From Octopus vulgaris (taxonomy: Eukaryota): a stretch of DNA of 64,000 bases. The stretch lies in assembly GCA_951406725.2 (NCBI GenBank), contig OX597836.1:27280001-27344000 (forward strand), written 5' to 3'. Positions 24,840 to 58,733 of the stretch are shown one piece after another (the stretch's first letter is position 1; each line of letters opens with the position of its first letter). Under the pieces are notes generated by a model, which searched no databases, was not told where the DNA came from, and was given only the letters and a program-made list of their open reading frames with translations. The position numbers and the translations under genes are program-made.

Positions 24840-24969
24840 TTATTTTATTTTTTATTCCAATATTAAATGTATTATTTACATCACCAAAATACCTATTATT
24901 ATTAGGACGATAGATTTCTAAATAAAATTTATCATAATTCAGATAATTAGGTTTATCATTATATATATG

Positions 24970-25034
<65 letters not shown>

Positions 25035-25036
<2 letters not shown>

Positions 25037-25880
25037 GCACTCCGACTCATCCGTCGCTCGGGCAATGCCTGCGGCAGTGGTTCTACCGCTGTTTTCTATA
25101 GAGGTTTTGTAGAGGCCGGTTGCGATGATACATTAGGGGAGACCCTAGGTTTCGACGATAATCAGCAGGCCAGACTGTTCCAACATACATTCGAGCCGAG
25201 GGCCCTGGATAATTTTCAGAAGTCCTTGGCATGGCAGTGTTACCGAGGTGCCTTACCTGTTCGGGATAAACTCTCAAGGCATGGTGGCCACGACACCCCG
25301 ATCTGTCCGAGATGTGGGCGAGACAGGGAAACCGTTTCGCACGCGATTGTGCAGCGTCCGGAGGTGTCAGACATGTGGGTTTGTGCCGAACAACTGCTGT
25401 CAGGTGGAGGAAGAGCACAGCTATCGACTGAATCCATAGTGAAAATTGACCCACCGGATTTCTTAACGAAAGAAGGTAAGAATTGTTTTCTCTCTGTGGT
25501 AGCAGTTGCGAAACAGGTAGTATGGAAGACAAGGATGAGAGGATTGATGTCAGGCAACTTCATCTCTGGTCCTGGTTTGGTGGAATTTTTTATATTCCAC
25601 CTAAAGAGACAAATACGGCTGGAGAGGAGGTGTGTGAGTAAGAAAGTGTTTGATGAAAGATGGAAGAATGTCGTGTATAAAAGGTCTCTTGTGGATGCGA
25701 GATAAGCCAAAAAACCGAGGTCAGTGAAGAGGCGGGGTTCATTGTTTAAAAAATGTCCATTGTGTTGTTTATATAAAATCATGTTAAATTATTAGCGAGC
25801 CCAAATTGCGCTTTATATGTAAAACCATGCGTGATTGTATCGTCCATTCTATGTATGCCCTTATGGATAATAAAAAAAAT
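25035..25880 (+). mobile_element. L1/Tx1-type LINE 3' fragment (zf-RVT region and 3' UTR)
   Basis: DNFQKSLAWQCYRGALPVRDKL...CPRCGRDRETVSHAIV...AKQVVWKTR: zinc-binding CxxC..ET..H domain. It ends in AATAAAAAAA. Confidence 0.8.
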
Positions 25881-29803: not shown

Positions 29804-30648
29804 CTTTCTTGAAATGTATCCGGTATCTATACCGAAGTTACGCCAAACCATTAAATTATGGCGATGCTTCGGTATAGGTACACACATGACTTTGTTTACC
29901 AGCGATATGTAGCAACATCTGATAGCCTGGTCGGTCACGTAATCATGTAATATATATATATATATATATATAGATAGATATGTCATAGTAACATGTAGAC
30001 TATTTGGTATTGTTAAACACTGCTAGTCACAGTGTGCTTCATGTTGTTTTAGCTTTTGAATGCCACCCTCCTGGCTAGGCAAGCAGGCTTGCTGACATTC
30101 CGTATGAATGTGATGTCAGTCCATCACAGGGTGACCCATTTATAGCTGAGTGCTCTGGGGCTATGTTAAATGAAGTGTTTTACCCAAGAACACAATGCGC
30201 TACCAGACTGGGAATTGAAATCACAATCTTGCATTCATGAGTGCAACAGCCTAACCACTAGACCATGTTGCTTTACTACATGCAATATATGTTGTTATAG
30301 TTTTTTTTTTTTTTTTTTTTATATATTTAGTATGTAAATGTTAATTTATTACTATTCCTTATCTTTACAGCTATTCAGAACTTTACCTGGTCTCACAACG
30401 ACAGTTTATCTGAAACCAGGAAGAAACAGATCTGCATGAGTACATATGTATATATATATATGTTTTTTTACTGTTCTCACAAGCAATTTTATGAAAACTT
30501 TCAAATATATTTATAAAACTTATATGTTGAGTGTAACAAAAGGAGTCTCCGGGCTCTCTTCGATGTGCATGTCAGCTGCAAAACCTCACAGCAACATCAA
30601 CTAAACACCAACCAATGCAACAAAACCAAATAACACATTAGTATCGGC

Positions 30649-30806
30649 ATGGAGTTTCAGTTTTCTGGAAACACAGGGAATAATACCCCACCTAAAATTT
30701 ACCACGAGACGCAAAGGCTGCAACTCTGTGGCCTTCATGCACTCAACAACTTGTTCCAAGATGGTAATGCCTTCACCAAAAAGGATCTGGATAATATCTG
30801 TACAAG
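30649..30806 (+). CDS. JOSD1: Josephin-domain deubiquitinase (JOSD1/2-like), coding exon 1
   Basis: [52 protein letters not shown](R) resembles human JOSD1 [27 protein letters not shown], including the catalytic Cys. There is an in-frame TAA upstream at 30631 and a donor AG|GTAAAT, phase 2. The symbol indicates family; it is probably a co-ortholog of JOSD1/2. Confidence 0.93.
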
Positions 30807-31039
30807 GTAAATATACAACACCTGTGTATGTATGTATGTATGCGTGAGTGTGTGTGTGTGTGTATGTATGTGTTTTACATTATATGTGTTAGAAAGGGCC
30901 TCCAGCTGTAGAAACTATACCAAAACAGATATGGGAGCACAATGTTGTCCTTGGCCCTGGCAGATCCTGTCAACCAAGTTGTCCAACACATGGAACATTG
31001 ATGATGATGATGGTGATGATGATGATGATGATGCCTGCA

Positions 31040-32535: not shown

Positions 32536-32661
32536 ATTATGCCCCAAAGAAATCTTTAATCCCTACCGCAGTACATTTGCAGTGGGAAACTATGATATAA
32601 ATGTCCTCATGGTAGCAGTGCAATCAAAAGGTTATGATATGCTCTGGTTTAACAAAACAAG
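32536..32661 (+). CDS. JOSD1: JOSD1/2-like, coding exon 2
   Basis: Acceptor TTTCTTTATTCCCAG|. Translation (R)LCPKEIFNPYRSTFAVGNYDINVLMVAVQSKGYDMLWFNKT(R), cf. JOSD GNYDVNVIMAALQ.KG...VWWDKRR. Donor AG|GTATGT; 126 bp, phase 2/2. Confidence 0.93.
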
Positions 32662-37344: not shown

Positions 37345-37576
37345 TTTTCTCTTTTACTCGTTTGAGTCATTTGACTGTGGCCATGCTGGAGCACCACCTT
37401 TAGTCGAGCAAATCAACGCCAGGACTTATTCTTTGGAAGCTTTGTACTTATTCAATTGGTCACTTTTGCTGAACCGCTAAGTTATGAGGACGTAAACACA
37501 CCACCATCGGTTGTCAAGCAATGTTGTGGGGACAAACACAGACACACAAACATATACACTCACACACACGCACACA

Positions 37577-37611
<35 letters not shown>

Positions 37612-38468
37612 CACCCTGAGAGAAATGCTGGATATAAGAAGCATCAGATGTGGTGTGCAAGAGCGACGCTTGCGATGGTATGGTCATGTGCTGTGGATGG
37701 ATGAGGAGAGATGTGTGAAGAAGTGCCACTCCCAAACAGTTGAAGGTATCAGGGGGAGAGGTAGACCCAGGAAGACATGGGATGAGATAGTCAAGCATGA
37801 CCTCAGAGCGTTGGGCCTCACTGAGGCAATGGCGAAAGACCGAGATCTCTGGAGATATGCTGTGACTGCATATAAAAAGCACTATCCGAACGTGGCCGAT
37901 GCCAGCGCCGCCCTGACTGGCTTCTGTGCCGGTGGCACATAAAAAGCACCATCCGAACGTGGATGATGCCAGCGCCGCCCCAACTGGCTCCTGTGCCGGT
38001 GGCACATAAAAAGCACCATCCAAACGTTGCTAGCGCCGCCTTGGCTGGCTTCCGTGCTGCTGGCACGTTAAAAGCTCCAACCGATCGTGACCGATGCCGG
38101 ACCCACCCTGGCACCTGTGCAGATGGCACGTAAAAAGCACCCACTACACTCGCGGAGTGGTTGGCGTTAGGAAGGGCATCCAGCCGTAGAAACTCTGCCA
38201 GATCAGACTGGAGCCTGGAGCAGCCCCTGGCTTCCCAGACCCCGGTCGAACCGTCCAACCCGTGCTAGCGCGGAAAACGGACGTTTAAACAATGATGATG
38301 ACATATATACGACGGGCTTCTTTCAGTTTCCCTCTGCCAAATCCTCTCACAAGGCTTTGGTTGGCCCGAGGCTATAGTAGAAGACACTTCCGAAGGTGCC
38401 ATGCAGTGGGAATGAATCTAGAACTATGTGGTTGATAAGCAAGCTACTTACCACACCACCACTCCTGC
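37345..38468 (-). mobile_element. SINE family B split by an RTE insertion
   Basis: Tail at 37345-37570, head at 38305-38468. Confidence 0.75.
37610..38300 (+). mobile_element. 5'-truncated RTE LINE (ORF C-terminus + 3' UTR)
   Basis: VQERRLRWYGHVLWMDEERCVKKC...VEGIRGRGRPRKTWDEIVKHDL...DRDLWR, then tandem UTR units and (GAT)n. Confidence 0.9.
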
Positions 38469-39350: not shown

Positions 39351-40180
39351 TCATCATCATCATCGTTTAACGTCCGTTTTCCATGCTAGCATGAGTTGGA
39401 CGGTTCGACTAGGGATCTGGGAAGTCAGAAGGCTGCACCAGGCTCCAGTCTGATCTGGCAGTGTTTCTACAGCTGGATGCCCTTCCTAACGCCAACCACT
39501 CCATGAGTGTAGTGGGTGCTTTTTACGTACCAGGTGAGGCTGGCAACAGCCACGATTGGATTGGTGCTTTTTACGTGCCATCAGCACGGAAGCCAGTCAG
39601 GGTGGCGCTGGCATCGGTCATGTTCAGATGGTGCTTTTTATTTGCCACCAGCACAGGGATCACAACTGCAGTTTCCATTGATTTTTGATGTTGGTGTACT
39701 TGACTCAATGGATCTCCTCAAGCACAGGGTCGAAACGGTGTTTCTTTACTTGCCACCTGCTCAGGAGTCAGTCCAACGGCCCTGGCAACTGCCTGGTGCC
39801 AGTCATAGGATTGGTTCAATTTCGATTCCAATTTCACTTGCCTCAACAGGTCTTCACAAGCAGAGTTTAGTGTCCAATGAAGGGAGGTTGGCATGGGTGC
39901 CAGTTGTCGGATGAGGTTCGATTTCGACTTCGCTTGCCTCAACAGGTCTTTGCATGTCCAAAGGAAGGAAAGGCATGCATAGGTGGGCTGGCTACATCCC
40001 TGGCAAGGGACACGGGATGGACTCGTCCTGCCGGGTCTTCTCACGCACAACATATTTCCAAAGGTCTCGGTCACTAGTCATTGCCTCGGCGAGGCCTAAA
40101 GTTCGAAGGTCATGCTTCACCACCTCGTCCCAGGTTTTCCTGGGTCTACCTCTTCCACAGGTTCCCTCAACCACTAGGGA
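39348..40180 (-). mobile_element. 5'-truncated RTE LINE with long 3' UTR
   Basis: KKCQSLVVEGTCGRGRPRKTWDEVVKHDLRTLGLAEAMTSDRDLWKY, followed by a ~640-bp UTR ending GGACGTTAAACGATGATG. Confidence 0.9.
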
Positions 40181-40214
40181 TTGGCACTTTTTCACACACC
40201 TATATACATATACT

Positions 40215-40550
40215 CTTTTACTCTTTTACTTGTTTCAGTCATTTGACTGCGGCCATGCTGGAGCACCACCTTTAGTCGAGCAAATCGACCCCGGGACTTA
40301 TTCTTTGTAAGCCCAGTACTTATTCTATCAGTCTCTTTTGCCGAACCGCTAAGTGACGGGGACGTAAACACACCAGCATCGGTTGTCAAGCAATGCTAGG
40401 GAGACAAACACAGACACACACACATACATATATATATATATACACATATATACGACAGGCTTCTTTCATTTTCCGTCTACCAAATCCACTCACAAGGCAT
40501 TGGTCGGCCCGGGGCTATAGTAGAAGACACTTGCCCAAGGTGCCATGCAG
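40215..40550 (-). mobile_element. SINE family B, 5'-truncated
   Basis: Reverse-complement copy. Confidence 0.8.
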
Positions 40551-40892
40551 GACATTAATCTGATCCTCAGAAATGATGAACATGGAAACATTAATTGAGT
40601 GTTATGAGAGAAAGCAGACAGCAAAATGACTCCAGCCAGTAATGAGAGCTTTAAATAAGATGATGATGATGATTCTTCGTTGAATTCCTTTTTCTAAAGG
40701 TTTTGATGTTGTATGTATCTGTGTGTGTTTTTGCTGAAGTGTGTGTAATTATGGGCCTAATTGGCTCTACATGTTTTGCTTATGTATCAACGCTGACTCA
40801 GTCCAAACTTAATTCATGTTTCTCTTTTTCTTTTTTTTTTCTTCTTTTTCTTCTTTTTCATCCCATTCTTCTCCATGGCGCTGGCCACCAAG

Positions 40893-41304
40893 GAATTTGA
40901 AATGTTTAGTTTTGGAGAACATTGAAGGTTTTATACTGAACATTCCGTGTGGCAACATAATCATGAAACTCATTTCTCAGGGCAAGCACTGGATTACCAT
41001 CAGGAAAATCGGTAACGTCTACTACAGCTTGGACTCCAATAATAAGGCACCGGTCGAGATTGGTAACGATGACGAGCTTCTCGTCCATCTCTGTGAACAG
41101 TTGAATAACAATCATACGGAATTATTTCTTATAGTCACACCTGATGTTGATAAAAATAAAAGTTGGTTTAGACAGTTACCACCAGAAGAGGAATGGGGGA
41201 ATCCACTAACCAAACCTTTGGATCCTAAAAAAAAAAAATCCGAAACTGCTTGTGAATCTGAGGATTCTTCAGACACAACACAAAATGGTTGCAATCTGAT
41301 TTAA
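40893..41304 (+). CDS. JOSD1: JOSD1/2-like, coding exon 3 (catalytic His/Asp, C-terminal tail with CaaX)
   Basis: Long pyrimidine tract then CCAAG|G, phase 2. Translation NLKCLVLENIEGFILNIP...KHWITIRKIGNVYYSLDS...ELFLIV...SW...PKKKKSE...NGCNLI*. The exons total 158+126+412=696 nt, giving 231 aa. Confidence 0.92.
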
Positions 41305-41829
41305 ACTAGTTCCAACCAATCTCTCAAACCTTTGTTTGACTTTTTTTTCTTCTTTTTTTTTTTTTTTCATTTTGTTTTTGTTTGTGTGAAGAATTATTGA
41401 CTGCATGTGTGTGTTTGTATAATTATATATGTGCACATGCATTTATGTGTGCACGTGTGTGTGTGTGTGTGTGTGTGCATGTGCACATATATCACGTGGT
41501 CATGTGATTGCCCAGACTATTGCAAGTTGTTATACATCACTGGTCACAATGTGCTTTGCATTATTTTTGGCTCCCGAATGATGCCACTCCATTGGTTAGG
41601 TGAGCAGGCCAACGTTTCTCCTGGCCAGAAAGCCACTCCGTCACAGGGTTAACCATTGAGAGCTGAGCAGACTGGAGCAACGTGAAATGAAATGTTTTGC
41701 TCAAGAACACAATATATGGCTTGGTTCTGGAATTGAACCCACTATCTAGCAATTATGAATGCAACACCATGACCTGTAGGCCACATACCTTCATATAGAT
41801 TGATACATACATACATACATACATCTCTC

Positions 41830-58270: not shown

Positions 58271-58733
58271 TTAAAGCAGATTGCAACCTTTTTGTGAATT
58301 TTCTGAAGAATTATCTGATTCATCATTGATATTTTGTGATAAGCCCGAAGACGTAGGTGGTATGTGCATAGTCTTTTGTGATTTGCGCAAAGGATGTCCC
58401 AATTTGTGTTCGATCCAATGTTTTCGGCGATTGTCACAGAAATGCGTCGTTCTCTCTTTGATTTTTAATTCCTTCATCCAAGAATCATCGTACACCGTGC
58501 CTTCATTCACAAGACAAAACAACATGGTGCGTTTGTTCTTTATTTCTTCAGCCAAATGAGTGAAAAGTGCTTCTTGGTCGCCGATTTTAATGACGTAGGG
58601 CAAAAGAGAATCGATCTTGTAGAAAGCGCGGCGAATTAAGGCAATGGTAAGCCAGTGGCCTCCTCTTCCACCCCTGCTGCAGGTGTGAATTACGAAACCT
58701 TTGATCTCCCTCATAGCCAAGCTTCTAATGTCT
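58271..58733 (-). CDS. Divergent Josephin-domain paralog, last coding exon
   Basis: Pyrimidine tract and CATCAG|A acceptor in the same phase as exon 3 of the + gene. Translation DIRSLAMREIKGFVIHT...GHWLTIALIRRAFYKIDS...IGDQEALFTHL...SW...QKGCNLL*, 153 aa with no stops. Upstream exons were not found in the window. Confidence 0.82.

Follow-up and report, generated by a model that had tools for sequence, protein, structure and literature searches.

Yeast Miy1 is a deubiquitinase (DUB) that must be prenylated to localise to membranes (PMC11847538). Together with human MINDY1 it belongs to the MINDY family and carries a canonical CVIM motif, which is conserved from yeast to human. USP32 also has a C-terminal prenylation motif (PMC10485055) and UCH-L1 a C-terminal farnesylation motif whose role in membrane binding is disputed (PMC4276877), both being members of other DUB families.

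Known counterparts of the gene presented here are the human Josephin proteins JOSD1 and JOSD2, which stem from one JOSD gene that split in jawed vertebrates (PMC10050893). JOSD2 (PDB 6PGV) is a protein of 188 aa with a single Josephin domain and a Cys/His/Asp triad, and it stops about four residues past its SW motif. JOSD1 is membrane-associated; a review citing the primary work (PMC7479174) places it at the plasma membrane and notes the lack of a hydrophobic targeting motif, but offers no explanation of how a protein with no lipid motif gets there. Among the matches listed for Josephin with CaaX or with octopus (titles and abstract openings, including few subscription papers) there was no report of a prenylated Josephin.

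Our subject is a Josephin gene of Octopus vulgaris, here called gene A, which lies in a window of 64,000 nucleotides (contig OX597836.1, positions 27,280,001 to 27,344,000). Its product has the fold and triad of JOSD2 and adds a tail of 42 aa ending in CNLI. Unlike the motif of the MINDY proteins, this one belongs to a Josephin and is so far confined to Octopus. We describe the gene, its tail and a tandem paralogue, and weigh what the motif is likely to do.

Gene A and its transcripts

Gene A has three coding exons on the + strand with GT/AG ends and a product of 231 aa. Its features in the window are as follows.

30649..30806, + strand: coding exon 1, from the ATG to a GT donor, with the catalytic Cys27 at 30727-30729
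32536..32661, + strand: coding exon 2, at the 3′ end of which all four transcript contigs have their loose end
40893..41304, + strand: coding exon 3, with His127 (40987-40989), Asp142 (41032-41034), the end of the Josephin domain, the tail and the stop
41176..41301, + strand: tail of 42 aa, net acidic and predicted to be disordered (pLDDT below 50 for residues 202-205 and 207-231)
41227..41238, + strand: KKKK (K207-K210), its four codons forming a stretch of 12 A
41239..41289, + strand: linker from KKKK to the CaaX Cys, 17 aa with no basic residue, five acidic residues and one more Cys (C215)
41290..41304, + strand: CNLI and stop, a CaaX-type prenylation motif

Its sequence is identical throughout to P0064, the josephin-1-like protein in the annotations of O. 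vulgaris and O. sinensis, and gene A was already annotated as a gene before this analysis. The O. vulgaris annotation also contains an isoform, P0065 (192 aa), that apparently runs from an acceptor at window positions 30371-30405 into exon 2 and would be without the catalytic Cys.

The initial annotation had read a tail of about 40 aa that follows SWFRQ, contains PKKKK and ends in GCNLI, and had proposed that the stop be confirmed from transcripts. Both the tail and the stop hold in the + strand frame 41161-41304. Contigs from four of four runs, each from a different study, cover 40889-41328 or more with 0 substitutions and 0 gaps and run unchanged through the TAA at 41302-41304; they represent spliced transcripts, since their loose 5′ ends coincide with the end of exon 2. 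The run of 12 A deserved particular care, as one base more or one base less would give a protein end without CaaX. The unchanged contigs of all four runs establish its length and the reading frame and rule out a homopolymer error. Splicing out ahead of the tail was considered and rejected: none of the four contigs has a joint or an inner loose end there, although rare isoforms drop out of such contigs and minor variants of gene A could escape.

With five K/R against nine D/E the tail is net acidic. CNLI would lie at a flexible, accessible end, to judge from a structure prediction made from a 12-row alignment, in which pLDDT stays below 50 over residues 207-231.

A Josephin of the JOSD1/2 type

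Sequence comparison identifies gene A as the JOSD1/2-type Josephin gene of the octopus. Its protein matches the Pfam Josephin family (PF02099) with 92.4 bits and an E-value of 3.3e-26 (cut-off 26), and exon 3 matches human JOSD2 (E 6.5e-13) far better than ataxin-3 (E about 0.05). The predicted model has human JOSD2 (6PGV) as its best match (Foldseek E 3e-15). The oxyanion glutamine Q22 and the triad residues C27, H127 and D142 show no variation across the 10 rows of an alignment, which bears out the intact triad seen in the initial annotation. A separate ataxin-3-like gene, assigned by its motifs and with three exons matched, lies elsewhere (G000:C11:45263127-45269565). A search of the ESM Atlas returned Josephin clusters only, and a Pfam scan found no UIM in the protein. 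The product would be expected to cleave ubiquitin.

The loop before His127 (window positions 40936-40989) is without the hydrophobic/basic run of other Josephins, and a Cys stands in it in both octopus paralogues.

How unusual the tail and the motif are

We retrieved 325 distinct non-octopus homologues, of which the 257 that align to residue 170 or beyond form the set for tail counts. Tails of at least 25 aa occur in 69 of these and tails of at most 12 aa in 146. A Cys at position -4 was found in just two, which is the level expected by chance given that Cys makes up 1.5% of tail residues, and in none of 30 distinct readable ends of metagenome Josephins (from 80 loci). A long tail is therefore ordinary for the family, and a CaaX end as a family trait is ruled out. 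Insect Josephin-like proteins, which are 44-49% identical to gene A, illustrate this: many have long acidic C-terminal tails, but in contrast to the octopus proteins these share no common CaaX ending. The Josephin of the moth Eumeta japonica (P0029) ends in CGAL and is a possible independent CaaX case; since its insect relatives are without this ending, it may be an annotation effect.

The O. bimaculoides orthologue keeps CNLI as well as KKKK, but with no more than 5 of its 231 residues changed (98% identical) it is uninformative on conservation. No squid, cuttlefish, nautilus or bivalve orthologue was named among the matches listed (best 120 of 314), and no other named mollusc appeared among the 19 of 149 representatives and P0003 whose names were looked up or among the 80 metagenome loci. 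On this sampling, the CaaX-bearing Josephin appears so far to be found in Octopus only.

A CNLL-ended tandem paralogue

A search of the octopus genome uncovered a second Josephin gene, paralogue B, about 17 kb downstream of gene A and convergent with it, the two stops being 16,966 bases apart. This gene is an addition to what the initial annotation contained. Its features, and the block that it shares with gene A, are the following.

58271..58733, - strand: last exon of paralogue B (His108, Asp123), part of a 235-aa model
58271..58285, - strand: CNLL and stop of paralogue B
G000:C23:27350135-27350005 and 27347497-27347384, - strand: exons 1 and 2 of paralogue B, past the window, with Cys18
41254..41344, + strand: ungapped 91-nt block across the stop of gene A, against 58321-58231 of paralogue B; 72/91 identical (coding 42/51, UTR 30/40)

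The model has three exons with introns at the same positions as in gene A, encodes 235 aa with the triad kept (C18/H108/D123) and ends in CNLL. Over the last-exon domain the two proteins are only 30% identical; in B the loop before the His is shortened to a Gly-rich stretch, and there is neither a basic run nor an equivalent of C215. Counted over its final 15-25 residues, B has a net charge of -3. Paralogue B was missed by a genome-wide Pfam search, and neither the gene itself nor an orthologue of it was present among the database matches listed.

In a tree of 30 proteins B sits on a branch of 3.29 and has no placement with support of at least 80. Since the protein tree leaves it unplaced, its origin was argued from common non-coding DNA. 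The 5′ regions of A and B align with a score of 91.5, against -58.9 +/- 11.2 for shuffles, the first bases of intron 1 are identical at 32 of 36 positions (gene A 30807-30846 region) and the 3′ UTRs at 30 of 40. This shows A and B to be products of a gene duplication.

The 91-nt block is not evenly conserved. Of the nucleotides in the 11 codons that precede the motif 25/33 are identical, as are 17/18 of those for GCNLI and the stop and 30/40 of those in the UTR. Paralogue B thus keeps the Cys, the position of the stop and hydrophobic a2 and X residues, the sole change across the motif being I to L. In the 11 preceding codons replacement changes have been as free as silent ones (pN 0.25, pS 0.23). 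At the four-fold sites of the A/B domain 10 of 22 are identical; NG86 dS over this domain is saturated and unreliable. The probability that a CaaX-like end survives neutral drift is 13% at the UTR rate and 0.3-1.5% at the silent rate of the domain. Selection on the motif is suggested by these figures, and no more than suggested, because the DNA common to A and B continues into the 3′ UTR. Gene conversion may have produced the block. Patches of A and B that are non-coding or under weak constraint are 75-89% alike, against 45-49% for silent sites of the domain, and patchy gene conversion between the inverted copies is a possible reading of the pattern. A shared RNA structure in the block was rejected (z -1.9 in A and +0.8 in B, with differing folds and no credible Rfam match). 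Searched as a dispersed repeat, the block gave one match only, in a search weak enough to have missed B as well.

CNLI and CNLL in prenyltransferase reporters and screens

The initial annotation took the end of gene A for a CaaX prenylation signal. The Cys does lie at -4 of the true C-terminus, in the genome and in all four transcript contigs, and a2 Leu and X Ile fit the motif; a1 is Asn and not aliphatic. A comparable case is GBP2, which ends in CNIL with Asn at a1, is prenylated in cells and enters the membrane fraction in a motif-dependent manner (PMC2998424). The two differ in that a2 and X are swapped.

Published reporter work bears directly on CNLI. Placed on Ydj1, it is 95% prenylated (farnesylated) by yeast FTase (PMC10320760), and it is modified by both human FTase and human GGTase-I, being classed as non-canonical (PMC11152559). 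Leu or Ile at X favours GGTase-I (PMC13524398). A check with PrePS would mislead, since this predictor scores CNLI as negative (PMC10320760, PMC9231725) while the reporter is prenylated. Yeast FTase accepts the majority of CXXX sequences (PMC10320760), so that substrate status in itself says little about function.

Two yeast screens add information on processing. Ras recruitment, which requires farnesylation as well as cleavage and misses all -LL motifs, gave CNLI 0.13 (cut-off 3; 3 vs 9 counts, which is low) against 4.9 for CNIL (PMC4358939); the 0.12 of CNLL is uninformative because of the -LL blind spot. The GGTase-I screen showed enrichment of CNLI (3.84 at 42 C), which the authors take to mark motifs that are modified in part and left uncleaved. 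For CNLL it showed depletion (0.18 at 37 C, on few counts), below the 0.2 line of the paper, as with canonical substrates (PMC11304957). All of these values come from reporter proteins and yeast screens and not from octopus cells. We consider it quite probable that the gene A protein itself is prenylated.

The basic run

Proximity of a basic cluster to the motif had been proposed as a second membrane signal, and this part of the initial annotation is not supported. KKKK is separated from Cys228 by 17 residues with five acids and no bases, and the net charge is -4 over the 15 and -2 over the 20 residues before the Cys. The linker is negative in both paralogues, and B has no KKKK. In the polybasic signals described so far, the basic residues immediately precede the CaaX; GFP carrying nothing but a CaaX motif ends up at the Golgi, and an adjacent polybasic stretch is required for the plasma membrane (PMC2998424). 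In K-Ras4B-type proteins the basic cluster adjoins the prenylated Cys and the end is net positive, neither of which applies to gene A. On its position and surroundings, KKKK is poorly placed and probably no second membrane anchor, and K-Ras-like targeting of the gene A protein to the plasma membrane is unlikely.

Proposed function and alternatives

The reading that we favour, with a probability of about 0.5, is that gene A encodes an active Josephin DUB with an intact triad and a flexible acidic tail ending in CNLI, whose Cys228 would be prenylated by an enzyme of the FTase/GGTase-I type, as the reporters suggest for the native protein. Removal of -aaX would be poor and there would be no electrostatic second signal, so the prenyl group would bind the enzyme weakly and reversibly to internal membranes or to prenyl-binding partners and would not give K-Ras-like anchoring at the plasma membrane. 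Presumably the octopus or cephalopod lineage gained the motif, and duplication or a later gene conversion gave it to both genes. In this way the intact Josephin DUB with a CaaX end of the initial annotation is retained, and the role given to KKKK is not. The UCH-L1 precedent counts against our reading, its farnesylation motif having been reported as unneeded for membrane association.

The motif might instead be incidental, the end of a fast-changing stop-codon extension like those of insect Josephins, with prenylation unselected and B sharing it by duplication or conversion. The diversity of family tails, 69 of 257 long and without a common ending, fits this, as do the chance frequency of Cys at -4 and the 75% identity of the 91-nt block in its UTR part as well; more than 600 human ORFs have a Cys at -4 and about 200 have been shown to be prenylated (PMC4358939). 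The near-complete retention over GCNLI and the stop argues against it: the one change, I to L, stays within the preference of GGTase-I, and chance retention is only 0.3-1.5% at the four-fold-site divergence of the domain. We regard an incidental motif as unlikely, if still to be reckoned with. A far less probable idea is that prenyl group and KKKK form a two-signal plasma-membrane anchor as in K-Ras4B, which would replace the lipid-free targeting of vertebrate JOSD1. CNLI can be prenylated, KKKK is real and recurs in O. bimaculoides, and C215 is a possible palmitoylation or acylation site; moreover human JOSD1, which has no hydrophobic motif, is itself located at the plasma membrane (PMC7479174). 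The acidic linker, the net negative residues before the Cys, the lack of a basic run in B and the negative result of CNLI in Ras recruitment all weigh against such an anchor.

In appearance PKKKK resembles a classical monopartite nuclear localisation signal (NLS) as much as it does a membrane patch. Combined with a prenyl group it could route this 26-kDa DUB to the inner nuclear membrane, but KKKK is the product of a homopolymer run and paralogue B has no such stretch; this routing seems to us the least probable reading. The precedent is that of the lamins, which NLS and farnesyl direct to the nuclear envelope (PMC2120380, PMC2288919).

A more far-reaching version of the prenylated-DUB reading, which we put forward as doubtful, would make the two genes the first lipid-anchored Josephin DUBs, found in octopuses. 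A JOSD gene would have gained a CaaX motif that selection or conversion kept in two tandem paralogues, CNLI being prenylated, uncleaved and weakly bound, CNLL fully processed and geranylgeranylated, and the two occupying different membrane pools while the catalytic domain of B diverges fast.

A Josephin whose lipid anchor occurs naturally and can be switched would provide a one-residue handle (Cys to Ser) on membrane recruitment in this DUB family, and the octopus tail would exemplify the origin of a CaaX motif within a disordered stretch. Two things limit the impact: other DUB families already have prenylated members, and the case comprises one genus so far.

Other features of the window

A Pfam scan of the ORFs of the window (63 of the 84 filtered) picked out the paralogue B exon only. 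ORF fragments at 24950-25790, 37500-38270 and 39990-40230 lie among many short repeats and microsatellites, and those scanned have no Pfam match at E 0.001. In appearance these fragments resemble the remains of LINE retrotransposons.
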